Source: Dudresnaya verticillata
Taxonomy: Eukaryota
Direction: 5' to 3'
Assembly: GCA_977862235.1 (NCBI GenBank)
Contig: OZ374557.1
Coordinates: forward strand, 806,001 to 870,000
Length of the DNA stretch: 64,000 nt
In this document: positions 11,115 through 63,182 of the stretch, piece after piece
Layout of the letters: every line of letters starts with the position of its first letter
Numbering within the stretch: the first letter of the stretch is position 1
The notes under the pieces: generated by a model
The model's input: only the letters and a program-made list of their open reading frames with translations
Told to the model about the DNA's origin: nothing
The model's database searches: none
Position numbers and translations under genes: made by a program

Positions 11115-11180
11115 ACGGGAGGGTTGAAGGCTACCGTTTGGAAAGGAAAGTAGGCCACGCAAGTTGGGACGGTGCTGTGG

Positions 11181-25588: not shown

Positions 25589-25593
25589 TCTTT

Positions 25594-25611
25594 TGGTCTC
25601 CCGACCTAGAA
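25594..25611 (+). promoter_or_regulatory. Primer-binding site of element C
   Basis: TGGTCTCCCGACCTAGAA 5 nt after the LTR end. Confidence 0.88.
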
Positions 25612-25736
25612 TACCGTCACGGTTGGAAGAAACAGCCGTCGAAATCCGCTACGGTAGGAATTCGGCTGTGCCGACAACCCGTTACGGAATATTGGATAGA
25701 CAAGCAAGAACAACCGTTGTGTTCCGTTAAGGCATC

Positions 25737-32517: not shown

Positions 32518-32925
32518 CGGACAGTTGGAGTGCTGGGGTGTGAGTAGAACACACAATGTTTATCGCAAGCTAAGATCGAGGCATAATGGAAACCGTTAAG
32601 GAGATGGTCGAACTGTAACTCTAAGAGTTACGTCGACGCCGCTTCGGAGCAGGGGCAACTGTATCTTCCTCGTTGCTCCCCTGACCCGTTCGTAATCCGG
32701 GTTCCCCACTCGGATCCGATTGGAATACGCGCTGCGTATTATCTCCCAAGACGCGAATCGCACTATCCATGCGCCGGCGCTGACGACGGACCACTGCGCG
32801 GAGATGAATTACCTGTTCCATCGGCCCCTCCTCTAAGGTTAGGACTTCCTGAACGGATCCTGGCAATGGGAAGCGCTGCGTACGGCAATTGCCCCGTAGC
32901 ACCTGTAACCCACTTTCCGTAGCGG

Positions 32926-35469
32926 CTAAATGAGCCGTAACCGTAACGGGGGATCCTCATCTTCTTGAAACTCTACCTTCAGGGAGATCGACGGGTTATC
33001 CCTAACCCCGGCTTCGATTGAATGCTCCGTTGAGGAAACCACCAATACGGATGGTCCTGACTCGGGTGAAGGTACGTCCTTCCGCAGCGGTGGATTCGTG
33101 TCCTTCTCTGGCGAGGCGATATAGCTTTTCCGTAACGGTTCAGGACTTGACGCGGGGACCGAGGGCTTGTCTCCAGTTGCCCCAACACTTGGGCGCTTTG
33201 CAGCCACTTCCGATACGGTGATCGGTGCCTCACTCACCGCTGGTGTGGGAGTGGGCGCCGACAGCGGAGCACTTGACGGGGGCGGTTCAGCAGCTGCAGG
33301 CATTTGCGTCGCAGGAGACAGTGCCGCCGGCACAGTATCCGGCGCCACTTCCGAAACGGTCTGCTCCTTTGAGGCCCCCTTCTCGGACGGTGCCGCAGGC
33401 TTGGGCACCGCCATAGTCGGTGCAACCACAGCTATGGGCGTTGGGGCCTTATCCGATACGGGAGTAGTAGTCTCACAATCCACATCGCGCGACGTGGGTG
33501 TCGCAAACACCGGAAGGATTGGAGCGGGTGTCTTCTCGCTACCCGCTGACATTGATGCGATGGGCATGACCTCCTCCTGTTCTTCCAAGAAGGGGTCCGC
33601 TTCTTGCTGCCTCACCGTAACGGAATCGCGCGGGTCGATTGTAAGCAAACGCCCCGCTGCCTCCTGACAGCTCCCCCAATCTTCAGCCCCGTCCAAACCG
33701 TCACGGTACGCATCCCTTGGTGCTTGGCGAGGGGCATAGCCCCCATGGGCCTGCACCTCTAAGGCCAACCATTCCGGACGCGGATCTTCTCGATGAAGGA
33801 AATATGGCTCACCCACTCCGGGCCTAAGCGGGTGCACCGATAGGACACGGTCCTCGTCCCAACTATACCCCAAGAAGCTCGGAGTGCGTTGCCAGTCCTG
33901 CTCTCCATGTACGGATAAAAGACGCTCAACCCGATGGAGAGGGTACGCCGACCCCGTCACCAAATCGGCTACGCCGACTTGGCGAATTAGGGCGATCACC
34001 ATTACGGGAAGTTGAAAAATACGGCCACAGTCCCCTCCGGGCAGGTCATCCTCATCCTGTGGGAAGCATCGCCAGTCGGCTAACTTGGTGTTATACCGTA
34101 CTCCGTAATAGGCCACCTGGAGCCACGAGAAGAGCACCAGCATTGCCCATTCCGATCGGAAGATGCGTCACAGTACATCGAGCTGATCTTGATTCGGGGG
34201 ACGCTCTCCGTTCGGATGCTTGTGATTCCACTCGCGTTCGGTGAGTAAGTCCGCCGAGAAGTATGCCACGACGGAAGGCGTGGGGACAGACAACCAACGG
34301 GTCACCTCATAACGCTCCCACCATGACGGAGCTGTAAGGTACAATTCACGACGCACCCGATACGGAAGATGGAAGAACTCCTTAGTGTTCCACGTATACA
34401 GGATTGGCGAGCCAACTTGCATTCCGTCACGGGAACGAGTTCGCAAACGGTGTTCCGTCGCGGCATCGTCCTTCCACCCATCGGCATAGCGGAACCAATA
34501 TACCGACTGGTCATAGGGGCGGTCGAAGCAAATGAATTTCACTCCGAACGGCGCACCCCGGAGACGGAAACCTTTGGCCAACAGGTGACTCACCTTTGCG
34601 GTATATCCTACCTCATCATGGCAGCGATACCACAACAAATCCGAAACGGGAGAGGTCCGCGCTTGACAATAGCCATGCACCCATCGGCTTTGCCATACAA
34701 ATTCTCTCCGATTCGGAACAACGCCAATGCATTGATTCGCCTTGAAGAGCTGCGCCATGACGGCCTTGTACCTTCTTGCTTCCAAAACGGTTGGATATTT
34801 CTCAATGTAGTAGTCCACCGTCATCGAGGGCTTAATCTTTGCCCTCTCCGCATCGGTTCTAGCCGGGCGCCCCGCGCGATGATCAAAGTGGTGCCCCGGC
34901 CAATAACCACTCGGGGCAGGGCCCTCTCCGTCACGGATATGTACCACCGGCCACCAAGGCCCCGGTGCAGGTGGATTGGTTTGCGGGGGCCCACGCATCC
35001 GTCTCGATGTACTTGAGGAAGGATGTAGACTAGCCACCATCCTACGACTCGGCATCGATACCGGTGTCGATGGTGTCCGTAACGGAATGGCCGGTAGGTC
35101 CACCAAGTTGAGCTCCTCCCCACCACGTCGGACCTCCTCGTCGTCATCCTTGGTCGCATCTTCTCCGTGACGGTGTGTCGCTGCATTCCATAACGGGGTG
35201 CTCCTTGTGGCTGGGCCAGCAGCAAACCGATTCGGATCGTAGACAGACCAGCCGCGGCCCGCCGATAGTGCCTGTGACTGTTCCGCTGCGGTAACGCCCA
35301 CGCGACCCCTCGTAGTGCGTGGTGCCACAACCGCCGAGGGCGAGGCCTGCGCTTGAGTCGAAGCATCCGTAACGGTAGGCGCACCCGGCGCTCTCGTCGT
35401 CGAGCTCGCGCGGGTACGCCGTGTCGATTGAAAGGGGGAAGGGGAGCGCTTGCTCTTCTCCCCTGCCAT
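32926..35469 (-). pseudogene. Antisense extra ORF of element C (about 847 codons, one in-frame TGA at 34168-34170)
   Basis: ORFs 34168-35772 and 32926-34143 are in frame; likely start MAGEK at 35469; Trp/Tyr-rich core flanked by low-complexity arms; possible frameshifted tail 32621-32902 ending PAPKRRRRNS. Confidence 0.8.
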
Positions 35470-35602
35470 CTTGGAAGCGGGTGCACGAAGGAGGAGGAAA
35501 ATTTGAGGAAGATAACCGTATCGGTTGTGTGTGGGTGTGGAAGCAAAGGTAATCCGTGACGGTGGGCGCCAGAGGATGTGGCGCCATTTAAGGAGGGGGG
35601 TC

Positions 35603-36277
35603 TGTGGTGAAGTGGGCCATGGCGCGCATGCGGCACGCCGACGGCGAGCCAACCGTAACGGGTGATGTGGCAATACGCCACGCTGGTGATCTGGCAACGT
35701 GTAACCGTGTCGGATGTTGTGCGCATTGCTGTACGCGGGTACGCATTTCTGTACAGCAGTGTAGCGCACCAACCATACCGGAGCATTTATAGTGTTTATT
35801 CTTTATTTTTAGTGAGTATCTGTACAGTATGTAGAGTAGTGCGCCAGCCAATGAGAACGCTGCGCATGTCCGTGTCGGAGATTGGGACCAGCAGGGCCGA
35901 TTCCACCATAGGACCAGACCACTAGGGTCTGGCCCCCACGGACCGGACCGCTCGGTGCCACCCTGACTTGTATATCAGGACGGCACCGCAGCAGCTCCTA
36001 AGGTAAACGGGTAAGCAACCTTAGCCCAATCCTTTACGGTTTTCCCCGCGCCGATCCCGTTGCGGTCTACCACCACCACCGTTACGGAGTCCGTCCCGGC
36101 ACTTGTACCACCCCCTTGTCTGTTGCTTCCCAATATCCGTCTCGGTTAGCCGCTCGCTGTTCTCCCATCTCGGTGCGAACTGCTCTACCACCGCGTGGAG
36201 GTAGTGTTGCTCTCGTCCGTTAAGGAAAGTCAGGCCAGCTGTCCGTCTCGGAGTTCGTGGGTTTTCACTACACCGCA
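35603..36277 (+). repeat. 3' LTR of element C
   Basis: TGTGGTG...CACCGCA; after PPT, before TSD. Confidence 0.95.
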
Positions 36278-36282
36278 GCTAG

Positions 36283-39994: not shown

Positions 39995-40343
39995 TAAGCC
40001 CTTCACTGTATTACAATGTTCTACAAAGCGTTCTCCATGCTATCGTTTGGTCTTCTCATCAGGGCAGGAGGATTAATACAGGTACGGCATATTGCCTGGG
40101 GTATTCGTCCACTGAAAAGCGAAAGGGAACAAGATAGTGCTGAATTTGGTTACCATCATTGGTGGCAGAAACTGTGGTCGCGTCCTCACCGCCATGATGG
40201 GCTCCTTGTCTGACCACACGACGGATAGCTTTCAATGGGTGGTCCAGAAAATTTCGGAGTGCTATGGTGTAGTACTGGCAATGGTCTCCATGTACCAGAG
40301 AACGTCTTTTATGCTTGCCGGTCTAACGGTCTTGAGCTATTAT
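39995..40343 (+). pseudogene. Degenerate MULE/FAR1-type transposase, part 1
   Basis: LVTIIG..N.GRVL....L.D.TTDSFQWV resembles the MULE core; continues after element D. Confidence 0.55.
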
Positions 40344-41175
40344 TGTAGTGCAAACGTCCTTGACGGAACACCGCCGAGCAGTTCGGGGCGCGGTGGGTAG
40401 CGACGCCCGTGGCGGTGAGTAGCCTCGTCTTGGGCGACTTGTGGTAGAGCAATTGACTCGCCTTGGGCGGACTGTAAACGCCCGAGGCGGAAAGGAAGGA
40501 CAAAAGAGAACAAAAAGGGAACACGTCAAAGACGGGTAGAGACGTGGAAGCACGGGAGGGAGACGCTTAGCCGTAGGCAGCGGTAGGGTACGCGCGTGCT
40601 GAACGGGGAAGTCTGGACCAAGGCCGGCTTTCCGGGAGTTTACCTCAACGTCTGAGACGGATCAACTAAGTATAGAACTACCTAGCGGCGGCGACGAGTG
40701 TGTAGGCGCCGCGCGGGAACTCGGGACACGTGTTGTCCCGAGGCGCGTCTGACAGATCCGTCCGTCATGCAGCCGCGCTCCTGACAGATCACGCTTAGCT
40801 TCCCTGCTCGAGTCCTTACACCTACATGTGGATGTACTTCCTTATAGCCGCATGCGCCCCATGGCGCGTGCGGTCTCGATCCGCACCAATCCCGATCCAG
40901 TCCGGATTCGGGCCAGCCATGCGGATGCGCCAGGCTTACAGCGAACGTTCCCGCCACTGCGCCATGCGCGTACGCGTGGCGCCGTACAGTGCCCGGGGTT
41001 CAGGCGTGCGGTCTGCACGCCAAGCGAGCCGTTCTGGCCCGAGTGGCTAGCGGCATGCGTCGGTGACGTGTTTGCGCCGCGGGCGGGTTGAGCGCGCCGT
41101 TGGCGGTCGTCCGTCGGTAGACGCTGCATATCAACCCGCTTGAAAGCGAAAAAGGGGGACCCCCCTGGCACTACA
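40344..41175 (-). repeat. 3' LTR of element D (832 bp)
   Basis: TGTAGTGC...GCACTACA; direct repeat of 52555-53469 lacking about 83 bp. Confidence 0.95.
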
Positions 41176-41608
41176 CGACCCCCTCCGAAAACGCGAACAC
41201 GTCAACCTGTTTCACCCTGCCTGCCTTACTGCGTCTGCGCCTCTTCCAGCGCCGATCGTGTCTGTCACCCGCGCCTTCGCGTCTGCATTTGCCCGCCCTT
41301 GGCGTTGGTTGAGCCCCGTCAAAGACGCACGTTCAGTTCCCCCCGCCTTTAGCGTAGGAACAATTCCCGTCGAATACGTGTCGTTGACTAACTTCGCCAG
41401 TGGCGTGCGTGAACCCCCGTGTTTGACGTCGTATCTGTGCACGCGTACGTGCACATACCGTCTAGGGCGTTTCTTTGAGTTCCGCCTTCGGCGTTGTTTG
41501 GTCCACCGTCGTTGACGTGTGTTTGTTGGCTTCCGTCTTTGGCGTAAATTCGACTTCGGAGTCAAAACCGTCGTTGACGTATCGTGTGAACTTCACCAGT
41601 GGCGTGCG

Positions 41609-43929
41609 ATGACTGAACGTCTCAGACGTCATGGCCCAGTTCAACGGCCTTCAAGTGGAGGGCGGCGCCGGTGTATCCGTCACCATTCGACCTTTTCGGG
41701 AGGACGCCCCGCAACGATGCGCGATTATTCTCGCGGGCCCCCTGGTTCGACCAGGAGGCCCTGCGGCACGAGGACCTCATCACCCATTACGCTGTGAGCG
41801 GATTTTTGCCAGGGGAGTTGCCCCTAGCCGTCGTGTGGACGAACGAGTGGCGCCATCGGTGCGCCATTCCGAGAGGCTGGCTGCGTATTGGAGCCGGTCA
41901 GATGCGTGCAGATTCGTATGCGTGTTTCGTCGTTGACGTGTATCGGCGGTTTACTCGCTATCCGGGGTCGGTATTGACCCCCACCGTCTTTGAATTTAAC
42001 GCAGGGCAGTACCGCGCCAATGGTTAGGTTGGGTATGGGGACAGTCTTGGGACGTTGTCACTAAGCCATGTGACTGTTTCGGCTGAGCCGCGGGTGCTTC
42101 AGGAGGCTAACCTCCTTGGTGTACGCTTGAAAGCGGATTTCCGATACTTGCATAGGACGGGCACCTTCTATTGGGAGCGCTGCGTCCGTTGGGAGTGCGA
42201 AACGCGCCGCCGAAAAGGCGTTTTTGTGCCGTATCAAGATACGCAAGTCGATCGCATTGAGCGGGAAAAGTTGCCGCATTGCTTCATTCACGTCCCGCCG
42301 TTGTGCCGAGACTTTGAGGTCAGCGAGGGCTTTGCGGCTGAATTGCCTCCGTGTGTCACGTATATTTGGCTCCGAGTTGCGGACGGATCCGTACTCTCGA
42401 TGTTAGATCGTGTTTTTCACCGAGTGGGTCATTAACGTAAGTTACGCATGGATGTGGGAGGTGTATGACACCTTCCGGCTCTATTATGTGCCGCCACGCG
42501 TGGTCAGCCTCCTTGGCGGGCTTGACTTGGCTGAAGGGCTGGGCGGTGTCAAGAATTGCCAAGAGTTCTGGGATCTACGCCATGTGGCGGATAACGTCAA
42601 CTGGGACGACCCGGTTGCTGTGCCGCCGGGGAACAGGCGCCGTAAGGCAAACCGTCCGCGTTACGCGATGAGTAGAAACCGTTCCGCCTGTGGCGATTGG
42701 GTGTGGTACAACCCGTGGACCAAACGTCTTACAATGGAGAACATCGCTGAGAGTCATTGTCGTACGGACCGCTGCACGCCAGCGAATCACCCACGTGGGT
42801 TGCGCAAGAATTGCGACTTTGCGGGGGATTTACCACCCCACTTGAGCGCCTTGATGGCGGAGGAGGATGCGTTCCACTCTAACAGCGGACCGGTTAACCC
42901 GTCTGGGACGGACGTCATTACGCCTATGGCGGCTGAGCTTACTGCGGGGGCGACAGCTCCCACGGCGACTTCGCCAGCGGCGGTAGGATCGTCGGCTGTT
43001 GTGCCTGTCGGCTTGCCGTCGGTTGCGCCATTGGATCTCTCGGCGCCCATCAATGAGGGTGATGGTGATGCCATCATGGTTGCGCCCGTGGCGAGTTCTG
43101 CGTCCGCAGTTACCCCTCAAGGCGGCTCGTCTAACGTCGCTGACGGTGCGAATTGCCCTCCTGCAGTGCCCGAATGGACTGAGGAGCAGCGCCGCACGGT
43201 GCTCGTATTTTTGCGAGCCACCGGTGTCGTCACTAACGGGTCGGGCGGGTCATCCACGACGCCCCTCGGGCACCCGCTGCTGGCTGCTCTGCAGCCCCGC
43301 GTTGCTGTAGTTCAGGCGTCGACCGTCGTTGCGACTGTGCCGTCTAACGACGAAGGTACAGCGTCTAATGACGGAGTGGCGAAAAGCCTTTGTCGCCTCA
43401 GGCGGGTTGTGCGGGTTCGTCCGCCATTGCGTCCACTGACGTTGTTAACAAAAGTCCGCCAAAGGCGAGTGCGGTGGCAGCACCTACGGCGGTTCCGCAG
43501 GCTCCAGTGGCCTCTTCGTCAGTGACGGATGTTGATCGTTCAACGCCTTTGGCGGTTAATGCGGTCCCATCACCGGAGGTGCCGGGGCCGTCGGCTTCGC
43601 CCAAGGCGGTTGAGTATGCTCCGCCGCCAGAGGCGAGTGAGCTTCCTGGTGTAGCGCCTAAGGCGGATAATGACTCTAACGCTGCGCCTATGGCGGTTGA
43701 CGAACAGTTGTCGCCTAAGGCGGGTTGTGAGTCAGGCGCGTCGCCAGCGGCGGATGTCGCGACTTCGACAGCAGTGGCTGTGGCGGGTCCCTTGCGGTCC
43801 GTCCCTGCCCCTGCTGCGAGCGCACCGTCGGTGACGGAAGACGACCTCTACTAAGAGGCGTTAAGAGAATCCGCCAATGGTGTCGGGGATGATGCCCCAT
43901 CTGAGCCGTCTGCGACGAAAAAGCCGTAG
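41609..43929 (+). pseudogene. Antisense extra ORF of element D, with stops and frameshifts
   Basis: ORFs 41671-42027 and 42055-42435 (same frame), 42410-43525 and 43390-43854; Trp/Tyr-rich core followed by an Ala/Pro/Ser tail; motif similarity to the antisense ORF of C. Confidence 0.75.
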
Positions 43930-45138
43930 CGTTGTTGGATCGTTAAGAATGGTTCGTGGGCGCGAGAGTGCGTGTGGTGTCGCTCCGCTTGTCCCGCAGC
44001 GGGGCGGTGAGCGAGGGATTCATACGTCATAGACGGTTAGTGCCGCGTATTACGACGTAGGTCGTAGTGGGAGGCCATACGGGCACGGGGGTTACCCTCG
44101 CTTGTGAAGCCCGAATAAACTTGACCGTTGTGAAACGTAGTTGCTTATGTGTCCGCTTGATGTAGAGCGCTGCTATAGCGAATAGTATGTAGCCGACGGG
44201 TCGCGTTCGTATAGACGTTGTTTTTGTCTGTTCGCTGTAGTAGCGTTTGCGTAAAAGCTTGGGGCGGCGCCGCCTTGGTGGCGTTCTTCTCCTTCCTTGA
44301 TGCCGCTACAGTAGCATAAGCCTTTTCGGGAGGGCCAATTTTCTCATGCCGATTTAGTCGTTTTGTTCAAATCGCGATTCCGCTTGTTAAGCGAATGTGT
44401 AGTTGGGGAGCCGTTTGTCGGTTGGCTTTTCGTCCTTGACGTAGGGCATGTTACGTTAGCGTCGGGAACGGCTGGGTTGGCGATGCGCCGCGCGTTGGAC
44501 GCATTTCCTACGACTCCTGGGTGCGGCTGCCGCGCCCAGCGGCGGAGTCATTTTTGCGATTAGCGCGTCGTGCATGAAACGTAGCCCAACTCCGTCTTCG
44601 ACGCCTGTTTCTTCTCTCGTGTTTGTGGGCGACCCCTTTTTCGGCTTGAGACACGTCGTTGACGTTTGCGGGCGTCACCCTCGAGGCGGTTGCGTGCGCC
44701 GCCCGTAAGGGTGGCGAGTTTCGGACTTGGCCGTGGGTGGCGCGCCTGGGCGAGGACGTGGGAGACGGTCTGTCGCGTCTGTGCTTGGTTTGCCTCGTGG
44801 GCGCTCGTAGTGCTGGGGTACACACTTGTCGGGTTCTCGTTTGTTGGGCGCCGCCTGGCTGGCGGTGCCTTCGCGTTATTGTTTTCACAATAAAAGTTTC
44901 CATTTCGTTCGTTGCCCGATTTCGTGTGGTGCGTGCGCCCTCCACGCCTTCTGACTACTGTCAGCCGTTCTGTCCTTACGGACCCCCCCGAAGAGGGTTA
45001 CCTATTCGCGTGTCGCCAACCCAATCGTCATTGATCCGGTTGATTACAGCCCCAGTCGTCCGTAACGAGTGTACGTCGGCGTCAACCCGTATGAGGGTGT
45101 GGCGTGTGTTTCGCTTCCAGCGTCCACCCTGACTAGGG

Positions 45139-48100
45139 TTATCCGCGTTGCGCGTCGTCGATGTTTGGAGGCAGACGCGTGTGCTTCTGACGGTGATACC
45201 GCACGACGTGCGATCGCGGTAGACTGGACACCGGTTCCCAGGTATTTGCTGAAGCGGGGTATCCAAACCACTTGACGCGGTAGAGGATCTCACCGTCTTC
45301 CGCGTGTGCGTGCGATTCAACCCGTTCGATAACGTACTCCGTCTCGCTTGCAGCGGTCGACGTGGGCTCCTGCCGTTCGAACGCCTTGTGCGGTTCACTT
45401 TGTTGCGTGATGGGCGTCTGCACCGCTTCTGCAAACCGTACTCGACGAGTCGATCGCCTAAGGCGCTGGTTCGGTGCCCCGGGCGCTGGCGCAGCGGGTT
45501 GTAGTTCTTCGCTTTTGCGTACGGGTTCCTCGCTTCTAGCGGCGTCCTTCGCGGTAGTGTGGTCTTCCTCATCGGCAGTCGATGCGTTTGAAGCGAGACC
45601 TACCTTGGTAGCCGGCGAAGCCGAGGTTGCGTGTCCCATTCGCGTACGGATATCGGGACCCTCCTCCTCGTCGGAGACGGACTGCGAGACACCGTCGTCG
45701 GGGTTGGCGGCGAAGGGTGAGAGCTCTGCTAACCCGCGACTTCGCGGCGTTGCATTCATTCGCTCCTGTGAGTCGTACGTGCTTCGCGGTGTCCCCGTGC
45801 CTCCTGCCGGGTCCGCCTGTGGCGTGTCTGGGGTGTCTGCTCCTTCGTCGGTTGACGTGGGGGCATTGGGCTCTGGTACGTGAGGTGGTCCCGGTGGCTG
45901 CACGGTTGCGGGGGCGGTGTGCCCTGGTGGGGTTGGCGCCCATACCACGCGGTCCCGGGATAAACGTTCGCGTTCTCCGCGTCCCTTGTCGACGGTGACT
46001 GTCTCGTCGTTGACGTGAGTTACTCGATACGGTCCATCCGCTACAGGGGCCAGCTTGTGCTTGCGCTCTGAGCGATCGGTGCTCCCGCCGCGGGCGAAGT
46101 ATTCCTTCCGTACGAATGCAAAGTCGCCCACAGAGATGTTCTCCTTCGATTTCCTCAGAGGAGTATCGACGTTCCGTTTGTAACGCGCCTGCGTCTTCGC
46201 GAGCGACTCTTTAGCGGTTCCCATCAATGCGGACAGCCAGGTTCGCCATTTGGTGTAGTACTGTCCGGCAGTGGGTACGCTTTCAAGCGACGGCTCCGCT
46301 TCTAGCGACAACGGCCGCGGGGGCTTAGAGAGCACCAGCTCGAATGGAGGGAGGTTGGTAGACGAGTGCAGTTGCGTATTGTACGCGAACATCAGGGCAT
46401 CGGTGAACAAATCCCAGTCCCTGGGGTGGTCTGCCACGTAGTGACGCAGGGAGGCGAGGATGGTTCGATTGAATCGTTCTATTTGGCCGTTACAATGCGG
46501 ATGGTACGTAGTGGTGAAGAGATTCTCCACCCCTAAGATGCGGCAGACGTCCGGGAACAACTTGGCTACAAATTGCGGCCCATTGTCGGACAGCAGCTTC
46601 TTCGGTGGGCCATACACAAACACCCAGTGTCGAACAAACGCCTTAGCGATTTCCAATGCCGTAATCTTACGTAAGGGAACCGTCCGGACCAGCTTCGAGA
46701 AGCGGTCCACGATGACGAGTAGGAACGTATTCCCCCGCTTAGTGCGTATGAGCTCCCCGAGAATATCGATGGACACAAACTCGAGAGGCTCGGTTGCCGG
46801 AACAGTTTCATCTCCTTCACGTTCTTTCGCATCAGTACCCGGTTCTTCGCGCAGGTAACGCAGTTGCGGACGGTCGGGTAACAATCCACCGGCATAGACG
46901 GCCAATAATACTCGCGTCGAAGCGTATGCTACAGCTTCCGCCCTCCGGGATGTCCTGCTAATTTGGCGTGATGCCGGAGATGGAGCAATCGAACGCGTAA
47001 CGCGGATGGTACCACGACTTGGGGTCGGGCCTCTACGGTCCGAACCAATAGTCCCTGTTCATCCGTTGCAAACGGTAGGGTGTCTCCGTCATCTAGACGT
47101 TTCCGGATCTCGGAGCAGTACTGGTCATTGCCCTGAGCATGCACCAACTCCTCTTGCGTCAATTGACGGAGGAGCACTTCACCCGCCGGTGGCGCGCTGG
47201 TAACCAACATCTGGTCAAACTCTTCGAACTCTCGTTCGGCTAAATCGACTTCGCCCTTGGCGTTTGACATACCGCTTCCCGCGTGAGCGTAGCCGTTCTC
47301 TGACGAGTGATACTCGTCCGTGACGCAACTTCCGTAGTAACACGGGATATCATCGTCAATTGGTTCGACGGTTTCGCCGTTCGTCTGTAGACGTGAGAGG
47401 GCATCTGCCTGAGTATTCAGGTATCCCTTTTTATACTTCACGACGAAGTCGAATTCAGAGAGGCGAGGGCGGCATCTCATTAACCGTCCTGAGGGGTCGC
47501 TGATTTCCATGAGCCACCTCAACGACGAATGGTCCGTATGGACTACGAAGGACTCCATCTGAAGGTACGGTCTCAACGTCGTGATCGACCAGACTACTGC
47601 TAGGCATTCCTTTTCGGATACCGAGTAGTTGCGCTCCGGAGCGGTTAACGAGCGTGACCAGAAGCCAAGCGGCTTCCGTTCGCCGTCAGGCTGCGTTTGA
47701 AATAGTGCGCAGCCAACTTGGTACTCACTCGCGTCACAATCGACGGAGTACGGTAGTCCTTGCTGTGGCAACGCCAGGATGGGCGGGTGAGTCACCGCTT
47801 CGACGAGCGTGCTGAATGCCCGAGCTTGCTCCTCGGTGAACGGTTGTAACCGGAAGTCTTGCTCTTTCCTCAACAATTTGTTGAGGGGAGCGGCGACATG
47901 CGCGTATCACGATACAAACCGTCTATAGACGTTGCACAATCCGAGAAAGCTCCGTAATTCCTTCTGGTCCCGCGGATGTTTGGCTTCACGTAACGCGGCT
48001 GTGGCCGTACGGTCTACTTCCAATCGTCCCGGACGTATCACATGGCTGAGATAGTCGACGATCGGGGTGAAGAAGTCGCACTTGGTTAACTTCAATGTCA

Positions 48101-49883
48101 CCCCGGCCCGATGCAAAGTCGAAAGGATCTCGTCAACATGACGGAAGTGACTGTCGATATCGTTCGAGAAGATGATCACATCGTCAAGGTAGACGAGGCA
48201 TGAGCGCCACTTGTAACCAGCAAGCAGGATATCGAGGGTCCGTTGAAACGTGGCCGGTGCGTTAGTAAGTCCGAAGGGCATACGCTTGTAGCGGAACAAT
48301 CCGGCATGGCACGTGAGCCGTCTTGTCGCGATTTCGCGGATTGATGGGCACCTGCCAGTAACCACTATTGCAGTCTAGGGTGGTGAATACGTTCGTTTCC
48401 CTTAGGCTGTCAATATATTCGTCGATTCGCGGGAGAGGGTACGTATCTCGTACCGTTACCGCGTTCAAGCGACGGTAGTCAACGCAGAAGCGGAGTGTAC
48501 CGTCCTTCTTGGGAGCAAAGACGACCGGCGACGCCCATGGCGATTGTGCGGGTTCGATAACCCCCTGACGCAACATGCGATCCACCTCCGCTTGAGCGAG
48601 TTGCCTTTGCTTTGGGCCAGCCCGGTAAGGCGGGGATGAAATCGGCCTGGAGCCGGGGAGCAAGTCAATATAGTGCTCCGTGGTTGCGATTTCTCCTAAG
48701 GAACCGTCCCACATCGACGAGTACCTGCGCAGCATCTCCTTCAGCTGTCCTTGATGTTCGGCTGAGAGATGACTCAGGTTCAACTCGTCCATTGACGGAG
48801 GTTTCGCTACAGTTGCTTCGATCGACTTAGCGAATGTATCCGGCTGCGCCGTTACTCCATCATTCGTTTGAAAACGGAATTCTTGATTCGCTTCTTCCTC
48901 CGCTGCCTGCTCCTCGGTGATACCTAGGACATCGGCCAGACATATGAGACTGGGGAACACTGCTGTGGGATGTGGCAACGCGGTAGCGACGACTTGTCCT
49001 TTGACGAGCGCTTGCGGACGCGCGGAAAAGTTTGCGACGAGAATCCGGAACACTCTCCGCGGCTCTACTTGAGCGACCCGTTAATAACGGCTAAAGCTTG
49101 CCGATCATATAACGTTCCAAACGGTTGGATGGTAATACCCCCTGCTCGCTCGGTCGTTACCGAGATCCACTTCTGCGCTTGTGGCGGGATGATTGTTCGT
49201 TCCGCAACGCGTATCTTGGGCGACGTTCGCCCTTTGGCCGTGCCGTACTCTTGTTCCGTTGGCAACGGGGGGTAAGACGGGGGCAGGCGCAGCGGGCGGC
49301 GCGTTATAGGGACACGGGTCCCATCGTCCAACTCAATCTCGCGACTCCGCGGATAAATCGCTTCGACAAAGCGGTCGCAAAAGTTGCAACCGAGTATAAC
49401 CGGCGCAGCGAGCCGTTCACAGACGATCAACTCCAACTTGACAACCCTTCGTCCGAGACGTACGACTAAGTCGATAGTTCCCCGGGTCTGAATCGCCTTG
49501 TTGTTAGCTTCTGATATGACGGGGAGACTCTTGGATACGATCCGTGATCGCGCTTCTAGCGGAATATCGTCAATACGAATTAAATCCGGATCAGGCCCCG
49601 TGTCGAGGACAGCGAGTTTACGTGCCAAGGTACCTAAAGTTACGCCTAGATCGGCGTATACCTTGTAGTTACTTTTGGCCATTACGAACAACTGTCCCCG
49701 GGCTTGTGAGCGCTGGTACCGACGCCAGGGGCGCTTCAAGGACGTCTGTGACGAGTCTACCCGCCTATCGGCGTATTTTTTAACTAAGTTCGGGTCCTCC
49801 TTCCGTGTCAGCACCCGAGGCGGAAGCCTCTCTGCTTGGTGCGACACCCCAGTGTCAGGAGTTGGTACCCTCATTAGTTTTTC
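45139..49883 (-). pseudogene. pol: pol of element D (PR, RT, RNase H, integrase, chromodomain), frameshifted
   Basis: [44 protein letters not shown]; chromodomain YVIERVESH...YRVKWFGYPASANTWEP. Confidence 0.95.
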
Positions 49884-52426
49884 GCCTGCGGCGGTTGTAG
49901 CGGCGCTGTGTAGCGATTGATCACCGTCGGATGACGTTCTGCTGCATGCGGCATAGGTCCGCCCCGTGGTGACGGTGGTCGTGCTGCACGGCGTGCTGCT
50001 TCGCGCGCAGCGCGTTCTTTGTACCGAGTGTACGCATCAGCGGGGACCCCCGCCTTCTCGACGTCTGTTCAGCCTTCGTAGTTGGCGATCGCTTTCATAT
50101 ACTCGCTCATGCGGAGGAAGCAGTCCGGTGCGATGTGGCCACGGGCATAACACTGGTGACAGATCAACTGTCTGCGAGCGTCTTGACGGAATGGACCCCT
50201 GTCTTGCCATTCTGGCCTCGCCCGATGGACATGGGGGGCATACTCCGAGTACGGAACGTGTGGCGCGGGTACAACGGAACGCCCCAAGGCGAGTGTGGGA
50301 TCCATTGCCCCTGTGTCCTCGTCTTCGACGTAGCTGTCCGTTGGTAACGCTGAAGTTGGCACTGACGCTTGTTCGTCGGCCAAATAGAGATCGCCATCGG
50401 CGTGTGTTTCCATATCGTCCACGTGACGGGTGACATCACGGAACTCAACGGAAGACTCCGCTATCATAGCGCGTGCGGCAGGCTTAGTGCCCCTCGTCTG
50501 TCGACGTAGAACCGTTCGGTTTCCGCCAATGGCGGGGCGCAATGCGCGAGCGGCTTGGGCCGGGGCCATTATATCTCGTCTTACTGACGTCGAGCCGGCC
50601 CTGCCGTGTCTTGCGCGTTGCGCGTCACCTTCGTCCTGCGCGAAGTGGACTAAACGTTCAAAAGATAACTCCGCCCTCGGCGTTTCTTCGCGGAAGCGGG
50701 CCACCAAGGACCTGATCGTCGGGTCTAACCCATCGATGTACAGTGTCATCTTCTCCCCTTCAGGATAAACGTTATCGCAACGAATACACGCGCCGGCGAG
50801 TCTCATGCCGTAAGTCGTTTCGTCTTCGCCTTTCTTCTGACTAGTCGACCGCAGGGCGAGGACAGCGTCTCGAATCGCCGAAGGCGTGGCGTACGTGCGG
50901 AGGAGGTAGTGCACCGCCTCCAGGTACGATGATACGCCGCCGCGGTGGCGTGAGGACGATTTGACGGAGCGGAATTGCGTGGCTGCCGTACCTCGTAAGA
51001 AGTACGGCAGCGCGACGAACGCTTGTGCTTCGCTCATCTCTAGCGTGTCCGCTTCGTCCGCGAACCGCGTTAAAAAAATGAGGACCATGACGGGGTCGCT
51101 GCCGTTGCAGGCGGCGTCCTTCATTGTTAACTCGAGTCGCTTGATATGGTCTTTGACCTTTCCGGTTTCGCGTCCAGATCGTTTATGACCCACGTCTTGA
51201 AGACGGTATGTGCGGTACGATAGCAACTGATCGAAGACCGGATTGGAGGGGCTCAGCTCCTTCAGTCCCTTGTATCGCTTTCCGCGGAGCCGCATGGCAC
51301 TGCTGTGAGCCATGCGGTCGTCGTCGTCAGACGAGGAGCCTGTTGACCCGTCGTCACTAGACGTGTCCGAAGAGGATGGGGATGAGTCCCCCCGTCGCTG
51401 ACGGTTCTTGTTCCGTCCATGACGCGACTTGCGGCGATTCTTGCCTCGTCTCTTACGATCCTTGCGTCGGCGACGGTCTTCCTCGGAACTACCGTCATCA
51501 GACGGCGGCCCTTGGCGCCATTTGGCGGTTTCCAGTCGCTCCAAGCGGGTTGCTAATCGCTGAAAGCGTTCACGTGAACCCAGTTCTGACTGAGAGTGGA
51601 CCGTCAATGCCGCTGGCTGCGGGGCATCTACTCCGTGGTTGGGGTTCGTCATCAGACGGTCGAGGTCGGAGCGGAGTCTTTGAAGGGCACCGTTCCGATC
51701 TTCTTCCAACGTCTGCAGACGGCTGAAAATACTTCTGACATTGTCGTCGAGCATCTCCGTGAATCGAACGAGTAAGTTACCGTCTTCGGCGACGCATATT
51801 TCCCGGATCCGCTCGCGAGGTATCGTGAGATTACTCACGCGGGTGGATGCTGGGGACGCCACTGGCGGTGTGCGCGCGGGGGTCGACGCCTGCGGCGGAA
51901 CTCCCGTGCTGCGCGGTTGCGCTAACGGCCTGGCCAGTGAACATCCGGCACTGCCGTGGGGTGAGGGGCAGCAGCCCCTTAGGATTGGTGATTCGTCTAT
52001 GACGTCGCGCCCGGCAGGACGTTCTTGGTCGTCGTCGACGGGTAAGGTTGGTTGGTGGACCGGAACTTCCGGTTGGTCCTCGACGATGTCGGCTTGGGCT
52101 CCGTCCTCGACGGGTCGCTGTTCGGCTTGGACCGTGTCAGCGGAATCCACGTGCGAGTGGTAGGTTCGGAGGGCCGATTCGTTGGGAACGGTGATACGGA
52201 TGACGACGGGTATCGGCGGGGGAGGTACTTCTTCCCTGTTGAGCGATATACGGGAGTGATCGTGGCCAGGACCGGTCGGAAAGGCCGATGCGATCTCGGG
52301 GCTCACGAGGCGCCCAGACCTTGTTGTCATCCGCTGTAGCGACCGCTCCGACGCGGGGACACTCCCCGGCGTCGATGACGGTCGTCTTGAACTGGGGCCT
52401 CGCGACGGCAGCGGTCGTGAGGCCAT
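49874..52426 (-). pseudogene. gag: gag of element D (785-aa ORF plus disrupted tail)
   Basis: CCHC knuckle CHQCYARGHIAPDC; similar to gag of A; ends ...AKN* at a slippery site. Confidence 0.9.
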
Positions 52427-52534
52427 AATGCAGTCGTAGAGTTGCTTGAACGTCGTGGACGATTAGCGACGGACGTCTAGAGACGGAAGGTCGGACGTCG
52501 CACGACGGAGCAACTTCGTTGAAACGTAGCACAC

Positions 52535-52552
52535 TTCTAGGTCGGGAGACCA
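52535..52552 (-). promoter_or_regulatory. Primer-binding site of element D
   Basis: TGGTCTCCCGACCTAGAA, identical to the PBS of C. Confidence 0.9.
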
Positions 52553-52554
52553 GT

Positions 52555-53469
52555 TGTAGCGCAAACGTCCTTGACGGAACACCGCCGAGCAGTTGGGGGC
52601 TCGGTGGGTAGCGACGCCCGTGGCGGTGAGTAGCCTCACCTTGGGCGACTTGTGGTAGAGCAATTGACTCGCCTTGGGCGGACTGTAAACGCCCGAGGCG
52701 GAAAGGAAGAACAAAAGAGAACAAAAAGGGAACACGTCAAAGACGGGTAGAGACGTGGAAGCACGGGAGGGAGACGCTTAGCCGTAGGCAGCGGTAGGGT
52801 ACGCGCGTGCTGAACGGGGAAGTCTGGACCAAGGCCGGCTTGCCGGGAGTTTACCTCAACGTCTGAGACGGATCAACTAAGTATAGAACTACCTAGCGGC
52901 GGCGACGCGTGTGTAGGCGCCGCGCGGGAACTCGGGACACGTGTTGTCCCGAGGCGCGTCTGACAGATCCGTCCGTCATGCAGCCGCGCTCCTGACAGAT
53001 CACGCGTAGCTTCCCTGCTCGAGTCCTTACACCTACATGTGGATGTACTTCCTTACAGCCGCATGCGCCCCATGGCGCGTGCGATCTCGATCCGCACCAA
53101 TCTCGATCCAGTCCGGATTCGGGCGAGCCATGCGGATGCGCCAGGCGTACAGGCGCGTGCCTTACACCTCCTAATCCCGATGTCGGATCCCGATGTGGGA
53201 TCTCGATTGGATCCGGATTCGGGCCACGCTTACAGCGAACGTTCCCGCCACTGCGCCATGCGCGTACGCGTGGCGCCGTACAGTGCCCCGGGTTCAGGCG
53301 TGCGGTCTGCACGCCAAGCGAGCCGTTCTGGCCCGAGTGGTCAGCGGCATGCGCCGGTGACGTGTTTGCGCCGCGGGCGGGTTGAGCGCGCCGTTGGCGG
53401 TCGTCCGTCGGTAGACGCAGGATATCAACCCGCTTGAAAGCGAAAAAGGGGGACCCCCCTGGTACTACA
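52555..53469 (-). repeat. 5' LTR of element D (915 bp)
   Basis: TGTAG...CTACA; adjacent to PBS and TSD. Confidence 0.95.
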
Positions 53470-53474
53470 ATTAT

Positions 53475-53560
53475 TACATCAAATTGAGCGAGTGGCATTT
53501 GAATCAGAACCAAAGACGGAACATCATGGTGTAATAGGCCATAGTATGTGCAGCGTATCC
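53475..53560 (+). pseudogene. Degenerate MULE transposase, part 2
   Basis: YIKLSEWHLNQN matches the MULE LCxWHxxxN motif; joins part 1 across the ATTAT TSD. Confidence 0.55.
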
Positions 53561-53816: not shown

Positions 53817-54451
53817 TGTAATGGATATTCTACGTTCGGCTATGCGTCGTGTCACCGTTAAGAAGAAGGAAAGAAGATCTTCCGAGAGGGTTAAAAACCG
53901 TTCACGCGCTTACGCCACGAGATTCTCGACCGCTTGCGGAATAAACAGTACCAGAGCGGTAATATTTTGTCTGGGACAAACCGTCTGTGACGGATTGTAC
54001 GTCCGGGTGTTCAGGGCCCGGAGGGTAGCGTCTTCTTACGACGGTAGTGGTAGAGCGGTAGGCAACGCCACAGGGCGGACTGTAAACGCCCCGGGCGGAA
54101 AGTGGGTAAAGGAAAAGGAAAAGGAAAAGAACAGGCGCGAAAAACAAAGCAAACACGTTAAGGAGACGGTAGGAAACGTGGAAGCACGGAAGTACTGACA
54201 CATAAGCTTCAGGCTGCGGTAGGTTGTACGCGCAAGCGGAGAAGGGCATTCAAGTCCGGGGCCGGCTTAGCCGAGTTTATTGTGACGTCTTCAGACGGAC
54301 TAGCTAAGGACTAATACTACTATGCGCGTGGCGGTGGAAGTACCTGGGCGGGCGGGAAGTTGCGACACGTGTCGTTACGTCGTGTGTCTGAGAGGTAAGA
54401 TCGCGATGCAGCCGTGTGCTGATAGATCCGTGCACAATCGTTACTGATACA
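53817..54451 (-). repeat. LTR F (related to LTR D), first segment; resumes at 63026-63182 and 63932-64000
   Basis: Shares GGGCGGACTGTAAACGCCC, ACGTGGAAGCACGG and GCCGGCTT...GAGTTTA...GACGGA with LTR D; GCGCC(G/T)TACAGTGC similarity resumes after 63026. Confidence 0.7.
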
Positions 54452-54885: not shown

Positions 54886-55537
54886 CAAGGGCAACGACAC
54901 GGCGCTGCGCGCCGCTATGCGCCGTGCAGCCGCGCCGAAGGCCCGACTGACTCCGGTATCCTCTGTGGCAGTGGCAGGATGGGATACTGTGGGATACCGG
55001 GGTAGGTTGGGGTCGCTTAATAACGACAGGTGTCTTACAATTTCTTTGTAATGATATTTGTTTCCAAGCCGTGAGACAGGTGCGGTTTTAATCACATAAA
55101 TTAGGAATGGAGGCGCACGGCGGGACTGTAAGATCGTATCGCTGTAGCGCGGCAGCGGCTCTGTAAATTTACCGTCAGAAAATCCAAGCCTACCAATGAG
55201 AGAGCGTTGATTTGGTACCGTGGCGAAATGCAGCCAATCGGGTGGCGCGGTTTGGCGGTCAGCCAATGGGGTTGCCGCTTTGCTGCTGCTGATGCTGCTG
55301 CTGATGCTGGTGCTGCTGATGCTGCTGATGCTGCTGCTGCTACTGCTGCTGCTGCTGCTGCTGAATTTTTCTATTGGGCGTAAAAGGGTGAACTAGAAAT
55401 ATTTCTAGGCGTGCGTAGAAATAGGATTGGCGGCAAGGGATGGTAATGGCGGGCGGATGTTTATTTCTACAAATGTTTTACGTGTACGAAGCCCTCGAGG
55501 GGCCTCGTACACTGACTAATCATTACTATGGGGAGAA
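54886..55537 (-). mobile_element. Non-autonomous Helitron unit 2
   Basis: First about 460 bp (55075-55537) closely match 62561-63025; ends with a hairpin and CTTG. Confidence 0.8.
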
Positions 55538-55819
55538 CAAGGGAAGACATCGCGGCGCGGCGCGCCGCGATGTGCCGTCTCTGACGTTCTGGTGCTGGAT
55601 TGTACTGCTGAGTTAAAGGTAGGATTGTGTGTCGGAAGCAGAAGTGAAAAGTCTTGAGAGATATTTTCAAGACGATTTAATGCGGAAAAGAGACTTGAGG
55701 GCCTTTAAGAGGCTGCTAGAAAAATCAAGGCCTGTAAGAGGCCGCTAGAAAAACTTCAAGGCCTTTAAGAGGCCGATGAAAAAAAGGACAAAGAGTAAAA
55801 GCAGCAATACCACTTAATG

Positions 55820-58800
55820 TCAGTGACGTTGTTCCACAAACGTGACTGCTTCAGGCAGAAATGGATTTCCAACCACTACTGGCATGTTGTGGAAGGGGTG
55901 GTCGGTGCTGGATGGGTGGTCTTCTTCGTTGTGCAGGAGAAGGATGTCATTCGATTTCTTAACGCGAGACAGGGCGACATAGAGCTGATCCGGAGAGAAG
56001 AAGTTGGAGCGCAAGTCCACGATCATCTTGCGCAACGTTTGGCCTTGTGCCTTGTGCACTGTAGCACTAAATGCTAGACGAAGCGGAAACTGCCTGCGGG
56101 TAACTCGAACGCCGTGGAAGTCAAACTGGAAGTCGATACGGTGTAGCGCGTACGTTTCCACTTCCTCCCTATCCCCGCTTTCGTTCAGCTTGGCCACATA
56201 AACCATTCTTCTACTGTAGCGCTTGACGACGAACATTGCACCGTTAATAATGTGCGGGTGTAGAACATTCCGTATTACCATAACCGGGACACCCAACTTC
56301 AGTTTCAATTCGTGCGGAGGTACCCCAGTCGGTATGTAGCGGTAGGTCATCTCTGGAACGATGGTGTTCCCGACTGGGTTTCCATCTCTGTTACGGCCGC
56401 GGATTGGAACGATACTTGTGGCGGAACGCAGAGAGAACGAAATGCCCGGGAAGCGTTCCAAGCACTCTGTGTTATGCTCGTCGACCAGAGCATTTGTCGG
56501 GCACACAATCATACGGTTAAGTTCGACGTGTGCAGGGTTGTGTGTTACTGCCCACTTCCATAGAAGTTCGTACGAAGCTTGTATGTTCCCCGTCGAAGAC
56601 AGTGGAAGCTTGCTTGTTGTAGGAAACCTTCCAGTAGCGATTGACATGAGCAGCCGGCTGAATCTCTGATCTTCTGCCTGACGAACTTGTTGAGTAATGC
56701 GCAGCACCTTCACAGCCTGCCAGAAGGAGGATTCCCAAGGTATTTCGTCTAGTAAGGACACGTTGACGTATTCTTTGTTCCCATGCTCGTCTTCTTGAAG
56801 CCTCCGCGACGGAACAACTGGCAACAGCTGAAGGTCGTCGCCTGCAAATACGATGCTTAACCCACCGAAGAGCGGCTTGTCTGGACGTGACCCCGAGCTA
56901 TTCGAGGCATTGCTACTGCCTCCGTTTCCACGATGAGCTTCCGGTCGCACTCGAAAGTCTTGGAGGATGGCATCCACGTGCTCAAATAGCACTCTTTGCA
57001 TCATAGAGGCCTCGTCTACGATAAGAAGTGACATTTTCCGAATCATCGCTGCCCTCTGAGATCGTGGACCGTATTTAGAAAGCTTGGCGTGTCGTTCAGA
57101 ACTGTCCTTGTCGTCAACGCCCAGTCCAAGGAGACTGTACAGTGTGCGACCACCACGGTATAGAGACGCTGCAATTCCTGTAGTAGCGGTGATTTCCACA
57201 TACATTCCCCTGCACTCCGCCATATCCCGAAGCAAAGACAGAAGGTATGTCTTCCCTGTCCCTGCATGGTCTTGTAGGAAGAACACCTTTCCATCCGTAG
57301 CCAGTGGGTCTTCTCGGCGACAGTCCAACATGACAGACATGATCTTATCGAACACGCGCTTCTGCTGTGAGTTCAACGTCCTGTACTTGTCTTCTACCGC
57401 TTCTCGTGAGCTTGCCGACGACGACGTTTGCTGTATCTCACTCTGTACCCTCTCGACTTCCGTTGACCTATGCTGTGAGGTAACAAAGGAGCGGAAGGCT
57501 CGATGCTGTCGCAGGAGGTTCCCTCCATGGCGATCTGATATCTCAATCAGTCTGTGCATCAACTCTGCCTTCTTCTGCGACGTAGATCCGAGGTGAATGT
57601 CTTACATCAAGTACTCTGAGTGTCTGTGGAGCATGCGTTCTGGATTTCCTCCTTGCTGGTACAGAGTCACGATCATGAAGCGCAGACTTGAAGGTGTCGA
57701 ATGCATACTTACTGCCTCGTCAAAGGATCTGTCGTACTCGTTTCCATCCGCATACAGTCCCATTGCCACTGCAACATCGCGGAAGGAGCCGTAGTTACGC
57801 CCTTCAAAGCCTTTGGCTTGCGCAAAGGATGAGATCGGCCTGTGAACCAGGATTGTCCGAAGCGCGAACAGCTCGACGTTTGCTGGGGAAACGAAGCGGA
57901 TGCGTGCCACCGAGTCTTCATCCGAGCCCCTTTTGACGACATAGTTTCGAGGCGAGCCGTCGTCTCTTGGAATATCCTGACTCCTCGACTGCATACTCCT
58001 CGGAAGCGTCTTGTACAGCTTGAAGCCTTCCATGTAGTCGAGAAATGTTTTCGACCTGTACTGTGACGGACGCTTGAAGTAGCGCAGCAGCGGTGAGTCG
58101 CCTAGCTGTCCCGGTCCCCGCGGAAGGTTGGGGTTCCTCATGACAATGTGGCGCTCTCCCTCCAAGTGCACTGGGTAGGCTGTCACCGGTGGATTCAGCT
58201 TGACATGCCTGAACTCGAGTAACGACCAAGCTGCCTCAACGCAGCCACTCACTCTCGCACGCATTTGTAGGCGGATGTCGTTGCGAATGTTGTCCCTTGC
58301 TGGGTTCCGGGTGCCCTGCCTCTCTGGCTCCGTTTAAATCTCCACGTCTTGAAGTTTCGGTGGCTTGAATGTGTACTTCATCAGGTACGCGACTGCCCCT
58401 CCTCCCCGGGTCCGTTCCACGTTGATGTGGCAACGATACCTCCTTGTCAACTTGGCATTGTACGGGACTACTTTCAGATCTTCCTCTTTCCTTCTGCGGT
58501 ACACCACGCGATTGCAGGTCTCATCCATGTAGGTTGTCGGCGTCACTGCAGTCTGGTCGTATCCAAAACGACACCTTCCATTACGAGTACGCCCTCTACA
58601 GTACGGAGAGTGCCGGTGTCTGTTGCAACGCATCACCAGTTCCCGGAGCTCTTGATCCTCGGACGCCGAAGGCAACTCCGCACTGATAATCCCGTCAATC
58701 TCGTCCAAATCTTCCAGCAGGCCGCCCTCTAGGAACACTAGTATGTGGTTGTGTGGCGTGTTACGTTCCTGAAACTCCAACTTGGAAGCGATTCCGATAC

Positions 58801-62766: not shown

Positions 62767-62856
62767 TGCTACTGCTACTGCTGCTGCTGCTGATGCTGAT
62801 GCTGCTGATGCTGCTGATGCTGCTGATGCTGCTGCTGCTGCTGCTGCTGCTGCTGA
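62767..62856. repeat. (GCT/GAT)n microsatellite in the Helitron 5' region; copies at 55281-55362 and 54675-54702
   Basis: Directly visible trinucleotide runs in all three Helitron units. Confidence 0.9.
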
Positions 62857-63182
62857 ATGTTTCTATCGTAAAAGGGAGAACTAGTAATATTTTTAGGCGT
62901 GCGTAGAAATAGGATTGGCGGCAAAGGATGGTAATGACGGGCGGATGTTAAATTCTACAAATATTTTACGTGTACGAAGCCCTCGAGGGGCGTCGTACAC
63001 TGACTAATCATTACTATGGGGAGAATACGTGCGTACCCGTTGCTTACATCCACACGTGAACGCAGCTTGCGCCTTACAGTGCGGTCCACGTTCAGACCGT
63101 ACACGTGTGTGATCCTATTGTGCCCGATATGCGCATGCCCTCGTGTACCACGTGTATGCGTACAGCCGCTTATGCCACGTTA

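Follow-up and report, generated by a model that had tools for sequence, protein, structure and literature searches.

A short hairpin-like motif repeated throughout a decayed Ty3/Gypsy chromovirus of Dudresnaya verticillata

Introduction

Maize Sireviruses, retrotransposons of the Ty1/Copia type, carry palindromes in their long terminal repeats (LTRs) that follow the consensus CACCGGACtGTCCGGTG, with 8-bp arms around one central base. These palindromes average 7.3 per LTR and occupy four loci, all within its upstream half, besides a region near the env-like gene; the authors suggest that they are cis-regulatory and trigger small RNAs (PMC4728375). In Arabidopsis, the VANC proteins are the anti-silencing proteins of the Mutator-like VANDAL transposons. 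The 9-mer bound by VANC21 reaches a high density in VANDAL21 alone, and the VANDAL motif, YAGTATTAY, is bound as duplex DNA, in one orientation and mainly in non-coding tandem repeats (PMC5735166). Here, we describe a short palindromic motif in element D, a Ty3/Gypsy LTR retrotransposon found in a stretch of 64,000 nucleotides from Dudresnaya verticillata (GenBank assembly GCA_977862235.1, contig OZ374557.1, positions 806,001 to 870,000 of the forward strand). This whole stretch is called the window; positions are counted from its first letter, and the other retroelement sequences in it are named elements A, B and C and LTR F.

The motif of element D resembles the Sirevirus palindromes, as these are described in the accessible text, in being a short palindrome that is repeated in an LTR retrotransposon, has arms more conserved than its centre, differs between families and could form a hairpin. 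It is unlike them in that the arms measure 4 bp, the spacer 3-4 nt, and the 130 copies extend over the whole element, gag and pol included; moreover, D is a Gypsy and not a Copia element. To the VANC system it may be likened as a family-specific short motif that is dense in an element encoding an accessory protein; in that system specificity comes from the density of the motif, and it could serve as a model for the co-evolution of a reader with its tag. VANDAL, however, is a DNA transposon, whereas the D motif is a palindrome with covarying arms that is also found in coding sequence. Going by the available parts of both sources, the Sirevirus LTR palindromes and the VANC targets are confined to non-coding parts and are described without covariation of arms through coding sequence.

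Recognition words that mark nucleic acids are also familiar from other systems. The DNA uptake sequences of Neisseria and Haemophilus are short words scattered over the genome, coding regions included, and a bias in uptake is thought to have spread them. Single-stranded RNA viruses have packaging signals in the form of dispersed stem-loops with a conserved loop and a variable stem. Both may be analogous to the motif of element D, since many copies of one recognition word or stem-loop mark 'self', but, unlike the viral packaging signals, D conserves the stem and varies the loop. Among the top-ranked titles and abstracts in a library of open-access papers, none described hairpin motifs scattered over the coding regions of LTR retrotransposons, or such motifs in red algae.

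Results

The palindrome CGCC-N3-GGCG is present in 48 exact copies in the window, whereas 100 dinucleotide-preserving shuffles gave a mean of 2.46 and a maximum of 8. Forty of the 48 lie within 40404-53399, that is in element D, where about one is expected, and five of these are in the 5' LTR (52615-53389). The remaining ~50.8 kb outside 40301-53500 contain eight. When the spacer was varied, the interval 40301-53500 gave 1, 1 and 1 copies at 0, 1 and 2 nt, 40 at 3 nt, and 7, 5, 3, 0 and 7 at 4, 5, 6, 7 and 8 nt. The product of the half-site frequencies of CGCC and GGCG predicts about 1.3 per spacer, control spacers average 1.0, and dinucleotide-preserving shuffles of D gave 0.8. In the swapped order, GGCG-Nk-CGCC, there are at most six copies at any k and no peak. 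The original prediction had claimed, from copies found by eye, that this palindrome is strongly over-represented in D and that its number should peak at a spacer of 3 nt; the copies are where it had placed them, and the counts in D, in the shuffles and in the rest of the window bear out both the excess and the peak. Two of the eight copies outside D (24947 and 35636) are one site in both LTRs of element C, with identical flanks, and represent background.

An unbiased scan of D with all 4-nt arms and spacers of 0-8 nt added CGTC-N3-GACG, CGTC-N4-GACG and CGCT-N3-AGCG. All of these, CGCC-N3-GGCG included, are classes of a more general motif, CG-YY-N3/4-RR-CG. With a spacer of three nucleotides D contains CGCC..GGCG (40 copies), CGTC..GACG (36), CGCT..AGCG (11) and CGTT..AACG (7); with four, the inner dinucleotides are TC (19), CC (7), CT (6) and TT (4). 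All classes taken together, there are 130 perfect copies in D as opposed to 5.2 (maximum 12) in 200 shuffles. The rest of the window, ~50.9 kb, has 17, so that the densities are 9.9 per kb in D and 0.33 per kb outside it. A spacer length fixed at 3 nt, as had been assumed, is therefore correct for the main peak but not for 36 of the 130 sites, which use 4 nt.

The two arms of a site depend on each other. Where N3 sites with CGCC or CGTC half-sites were compared, the arms were matched in 76 cases (40 + 36) and mixed in 5 (1 and 4; Fisher p=2e-17). The same was seen in CG-N7-CG frames of D, which were not selected for pairing: both inner pairs are Watson-Crick in 117/260, compared with 17/150 at altered spacing and 0-15% for 15 other outer dinucleotides. 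Variants with one mismatch are at background when set against control spacings (G.T 18 vs 13, A.C 28 vs 24, other 72 vs 89), and wobble pairs, by which we attempted to assign the motif to a strand, are in excess on neither of the two. The stem is limited to four base pairs. A fifth pair is under-represented: it is Watson-Crick in 10/79 sites, where 26.7% are expected from the composition of the flanks (p=0.003).

The flanks are one-sided. On the + strand of the window, the five bases that follow RRCG are G/T, not C (6/79), T-rich (33/79), any base, and not C (7/79). On the 5' side, G is depleted at -1 and T is in excess at -2, with nothing else and with no mirror of the bias at +2, +3 and +5. 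This asymmetry was seen separately in gag-pol and in the non-coding parts, the dense array being excluded. Strictly covarying arms, spacers of N3 as well as N4, a stem of 4 bp and a one-sided flank are more in keeping with a nucleic-acid hairpin than with the duplex-DNA site of a dimeric protein. The latter had been the original prediction, and it is not supported by the non-independent half-sites, the two spacer lengths and the one-sided flank.

The sites are spread over LTRs, gag, pol and non-coding DNA, and 106 of the 130 are outside the LTRs. They are most frequent in the LTRs (13-15 per kb), followed by gag and the protease region (~11, up to 11.3), the 4 kb downstream of pol (9.8) and the region for reverse transcriptase (RT), RNase H and integrase (6.0-7.3). 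Motif density is lowest where constraint on the protein is strongest. The 44 CGYC-N3/4-GRCG sites in the open reading frames (ORFs) of gag and pol are distributed over the codon phases as 7/10/12 (N3) and 5/6/4 (N4). The starts of neighbouring sites are always at least 17 nt apart, although ~19 shorter distances are expected under uniform placement, and distances of 17-30 nt are found 39 times compared with 14.5 expected; motif and flank together span 17 nt. Sites are densest between the end of a gene that runs antisense to the element and the end of pol. A cluster at 43394-43752 had been located in the low-complexity tail of this antisense ORF; the cluster is real, but the gene already has its conserved C-terminal motif at 43208, and the sequence that follows, with the cluster, is probably non-coding. 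Tandem Repeats Finder detected no repeat in 43341-43752 and three small arrays elsewhere in D, in agreement with the view that the CGCC-N3-GGCG sites do not form a tandem repeat.

LTR F keeps the arms of the motif at four positions homologous to sites in the LTR of D, and the sequence or the length of the loop differs between the two. The pairs (D versus F) are CGTC-ctt-GACG and CGTC-tgt-GACG, CGCC-ttg-GGCG and CGCC-acag-GGCG, CGCC-cga-GGCG and CGCC-ccg-GGCG, and CGTC-tga-GACG and CGTC-ttca-GACG; in two of these pairs D has a spacer of 3 where LTR F has 4. The site at 40355, 11 nt from the terminus of the 3' LTR of D, is conserved in LTR F. Arms that are kept while loops drift, a density that tracks constraint, and the spacing rule are signs of selection. 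Of two further copies of CGCC-N3-GGCG that had been ascribed to LTR F, one (54087) does lie in this relative of D's LTR; the other (63988) was rejected as part of a related LTR, because there is no D- or F-like sequence at that place. Element D shares no motif position with element A (66% nucleotide identity in pol), and conservation of positions was found only between the LTRs of D and F. In 39 related metagenome loci the D-type motif was not found at density, the maximum being 1.6 per kb.

All four Gypsy elements of the window have an excess of perfect 4-bp inverted repeats at short spacers over dinucleotide shuffles, with 181 vs 60 in D (k=3), 79 vs 34 in A (k=5), ~95 vs 35 in B (k=4-6) and 91 vs 47 in C (k=1). 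No such excess was found in the stretches between the elements and in the region 55075-63025. This shows that the hairpin excess is linked with retroelements, not with host DNA or a DNA transposon. Elements A-D also fold more stably than shuffles (mean z -0.7 to -1.7, a difference in minimum free energy of 6-13%), as compared with z of -0.1 to -0.2 for the Helitron-like region at 55075-63025 and -0.1 to -0.55 for inter-element DNA. Neither the z-scores nor the stem probabilities gave a consistent strand preference. The hairpins themselves differ from element to element (Table 1). In element B, all three inner pairs are complementary in 25/120 frames, with varied sequences. The 9-mer of element C, CCGTWACGG, always holds TAACGG on one strand, which presumably resembles a Myb-type site. 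Direct repeats of 463 bp, 90% identical, lie at either end of the Helitron-like region (55075-55537 and 62561-63025).

Several related metagenome loci are rich in hairpins of another kind. L007 (2672 nt) has 68 perfect hairpins and L005 (10742 nt) has 110, in both cases with stems of 5-11 bp, of diverse sequence and without a shared stem. Some hairpins are common to L004, L005 and L006 despite changes on both sides. As regards hairpins with a single mismatch on the sense strand of L007, A.C is enriched (23 vs 6.0) and G.T is not (4 vs 4.7); the A.C excess may reflect wobble tolerance on the antisense strand or G-to-A decay. A C directly follows the stem in 53/101 hairpins of L005.

Element D is a decayed Ty3/Gypsy chromovirus in minus orientation, as seen from its paired LTRs, the target-site duplication, the gag-like ORF and the order of RT, RNase H, integrase and chromodomain. 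By our reading of the sequence, it ends in TGTAG...CTACA and is framed by the 5-bp target-site duplication ATTAT at 40339-40343 and 53470-53474. A self-comparison of the window showed that the LTRs are in direct orientation and 95-98% identical. The right (5') LTR has ~83 bp that the other LTR lacks (53153-53235), in part a 13-bp tandem repeat (53174-53222). The candidate for the primer-binding site is a 13-mer that starts with TGG. No Pfam family matched the gag-like ORF above the cut-off. On the minus strand the Pfam domains follow each other as RVT_1, RT_RNaseH, rve and Chromo, in reading frames that are interrupted. Its proteins have their closest named relatives, at 50-60% identity, in Chondrus crispus and Agarophyton chilense, two red algae, which makes a florideophyte red alga the probable host.

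Table 1 Features of element D, of other sequences in the window and of related metagenome loci
Feature	Position	Strand	Remarks
Element D	40344..53469	-	Ty3/Gypsy chromovirus-type LTR retrotransposon; pol and antisense genes broken
Mini-hairpin motif CG-YY-N3/4-RR-CG	40355..53417	.	130 perfect copies in D, 94 with N3 and 36 with N4
3' LTR of D (element's orientation)	40344..41175	-	12 motif sites
5' LTR of D (element's orientation)	52555..53469	-	12 motif sites
Putative polypurine tract GGAGGGGG (sense strand)	41179..41186	-	Next to 3' LTR; called from position and composition only
Putative primer-binding site TGGTCTCCCGACC (sense strand)	52540..52552	-	2 nt from 5' LTR; called from position and TGG start only
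gag-like ORF, 797 amino acids	50069..52462	-	Terminal single CCHC zinc knuckle CHQCYARGHIAPDC; very basic stretch; 27 motif sites
pol of D, five overlapping frame pieces	45139..50036	-	Pfam domains on pieces
pol piece	49065-50036	-	No family match
pol pieces, RT	48262-49080 and 47907-48374	-	
pol piece, RNase H	46929-47906	-	
pol piece, integrase and chromodomain	45139-47058	-	
Antisense-gene remnant	41617..43522	+	Downstream of pol; pieces 41617-42024, 42028-42432 and 42407-43522
Densest array	43341..43752	.	15 CGYC-N3/4-GRCG sites, last six 27-30 nt apart; between antisense-gene end and pol end
LTR-like sequence F	53950..54430	.	~66% identical to LTR of D; motif sites 53982, 54066, 54087 and 54286 at homologous positions
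Element A	1-8000, cut by window start	-	Gypsy; GAGG-N5-CCTC 11 times, often GAGGA-N3-TCCTC
Element B	11180-19905	+	Gypsy; excess of 5-bp hairpins AG-NNN-loop(3-5)-NNN-CT
Element C	24915-36280	+	Gypsy chromovirus; ~34 CCGTWACGG copies with A/T flanks over whole element including both LTRs
Helitron-like region	55075-63025		Rep (Helitron_like_N) 58334-59341 (-); PIF1 helicase 55820-57601 (-); internal control
Intact antisense gene, L003	2533-4779	-	748 amino acids; antisense to pol
Intact antisense gene, L005	7368-9716	-	782 amino acids; antisense to pol
Intact antisense gene, L006	4779-7016	-	Antisense to pol

The antisense gene of D is a remnant that is interrupted by a single in-frame stop and a single change of frame. 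It matches the intact antisense ORFs of the metagenome loci L003, L005 and L006 in tblastx and tblastn searches, covers positions 138-639 of a profile of ~657, and has at 43208 the conserved C-terminal motif (..EEQRRTVLVFLRATG..; pattern ..R.FLR..G..). Where intact, the proteins have ~750-780 amino acids, with a core of ~400 amino acids and the short C-terminal motif; those of L003 and L005 are 29% identical over 610 residues (E=5e-61). A word-indexed search found eight relatives, and 105 library representatives match the family at E<=0.001. The antisense ORFs of element C (32926-35802, minus strand) have a weak, collinear profile similarity to the family, with E 2.4e-4 (43% probability) and 0.009 (4%), and a search of element B with the family profile detected no antisense gene.

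In Pfam the antisense protein has no match, the single hit being below threshold (E 0.96). The core was modelled confidently by AlphaFold, with a predicted local distance difference test (pLDDT) score of 83.8 and a predicted template modelling (pTM) score of 0.85. Compared with the PDB, this core gave nothing at E<=0.001 in Foldseek and a best Z of 2.4 among 48,161 chains in VIA-align, and the ESM Atlas contained no usable hit; these blank searches of Pfam, PDB and Atlas show neither a novel fold nor an absence of relatives.

Discussion

It is tempting to speculate that the mini-hairpin of element D is a family-specific, multivalent tag for self-recognition on single-stranded replication intermediates, read by a protein that the element itself encodes. 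We favour this only tentatively, as a possibility that falls somewhat short of an even chance. Pairing would then take place in the genomic RNA or the minus-strand cDNA and not in duplex DNA, and a sequence-specific reader would contact the base of the stem and one flank. Candidates for such a reader would be the zinc-knuckle protein Gag and the protein encoded by the antisense gene. Weak sites in large number would jointly mark the 'own' nucleic acid for packaging, protection or activation amid competing Gypsy families, and favoured handling of motif-rich copies would drive the spread of the motif through the element. That a protein reads the hairpin, and not two independent half-sites of a duplex, is likely. 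As to the nucleic acid that is read, the strict Watson-Crick rule and the preference for a 3-nt loop lean towards DNA, and the one-sided flank leans towards a single strand. A further and more doubtful assumption extends this to the red-algal chromoviruses at large: their families would each carry hairpin 'barcodes' of their own, with stem bases CG/CG, AG/CT, GAGG/CCTC and CCG(T)/(A)CGG, which would have been spread over the whole element, coding sequence included, by recognition-driven molecular drive and would co-evolve with an element-encoded reader, either the Gag zinc knuckle or the antisense protein, so that each family could tell its own RNA or cDNA from those of many competitors within one nucleus.

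Several observations weigh against such a self-recognition tag. G.U or G.T wobble pairs are not in excess in D and the sites are all-or-none, which is atypical for a functional RNA stem. The isolated hairpin is weak, with an energy of about -2.5 kcal/mol as RNA and -2.2 as DNA, and the mean probability of the stem within +/-40 nt is 0.33 (RNA) and 0.46 (DNA), with no difference between the strands. It would be unusual for a 4-bp RNA stem with a free loop to be read in a sequence-specific manner. Nor does a uniform motif go together with the antisense gene: L005 and L006 carry the antisense gene together with many hairpins that have no shared stem, and B has its hairpin type without a detectable antisense gene. 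Finally, the reader is a candidate named from sequence, and the family of D is represented by one copy and one related LTR.

The site might instead be bound in duplex DNA by a dimeric protein, perhaps the product of the antisense gene acting like VANC. We regard this as unlikely, although a motif that is family-specific, dense and located beside an element-encoded accessory gene would suit it, and so would the CCGTWACGG of element C, which is constrained even at its centre, and the intolerance of D to wobble pairs; perfect palindromy, for its part, could stem from the birth of the sites by fold-back copying and not from their reading. A homodimer, however, would read its half-sites independently and mixed sites would make up about half of the total, in conflict with the 76 matched and 5 mixed sites that were seen. 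Also difficult to reconcile with it are the two spacer lengths, 3 in 94 sites and 4 in 36, which differ between homologous sites of D and F, and flanks that are one-sided and not two-fold symmetric. In addition, gag is as rich in sites as non-coding DNA, whereas VANC motifs are non-coding and in one orientation, and the antisense protein is without a recognisable DNA-binding domain or fold, which is weak evidence. Quite unlikely in our view is local RNA structure of a generic kind, without a specific reader, that would have been selected for making the RNA compact or for shielding it, for instance from small-RNA silencing or decay; the genome-scale ordered RNA structure of persistent RNA viruses would be a parallel. 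It would account for the more stable folding of A-D relative to shuffles, which is hardly shared by the Helitron-like and inter-element DNA, for the hairpin-rich L007 and L005 with no common stem sequence, and for the hairpins kept between L004, L005 and L006 through two-sided changes. But the stems of D are uniform, weak and not extended beyond 4 bp, the opposite of what selection for stability would give, and no use is made of G.U pairs, although these cost little in RNA.

The hairpins could also be a by-product of mutation without function, made by fold-back copying of the reverse transcriptase, that is, by short template switching. Template switching is described, in the available parts of two reports, as able to create perfect hairpins in one step (PMC5453318, PMC10710096). 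The perfect arms of D, with one-mismatch variants no commoner than at control spacings, are in line with this, as are loops at the steric minimum of 3-4 nt, the restriction of the excess to reverse-transcribing elements and the turnover of sites between families, A and D sharing no positions despite pol genes that are 66% identical. The diverse stems of 5-11 bp in L005 and L007 would be compatible with such an origin in those loci, unlike the one stem type of D. Copying alone gives no reason why one sequence, CG-YY/RR-CG, should arise 130 times, and the stop at 4 bp, the one-sided flank and the minimum spacing of 17 nt are left unexplained, as is the retention of arms between the LTRs of D and F while loops drift. 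We therefore consider it decidedly improbable as the whole explanation; it may nevertheless supply the raw material for the hairpins. The chance that the motif is an artefact is negligible, be it of base composition, CpG richness, the usage of codons or amino acids, or a degenerate tandem repeat. D is indeed GC-rich (0.59), its CpG observed/expected ratio is 1.29 and the sites of the array show a rough periodicity in part of 43598-43752. Against this, shuffles give 0.8 copies of CGCC-N3-GGCG and 5.2 of the full motif, the same half-sites at other spacings occur about once, and sites extend over 13 kb. Shuffles, spacer controls, codon phases and Tandem Repeats Finder together refute this explanation; neither CpG and GC content nor the use of Pro-Ala codons, which the original prediction had named as its possible refutation, accounts for the motif, all three codon phases being occupied.

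Short motifs that a transposon has accumulated in its own sequence are known in only a few cases, and that of element D runs through the entire element, over its own genes, about once per 100 nt. Within the same 64 kb, the hairpins of neighbouring Gypsy families are of other types. The finding also draws attention to an uncharacterised family of antisense genes in these Gypsy elements. If the hairpins are read by a protein of the element, they would constitute a code for self and non-self among competing retrotransposons, and, if this is true, an 11-12-nt ligand and two candidate proteins would provide a tractable system in which to study self-recognition by retroelements.

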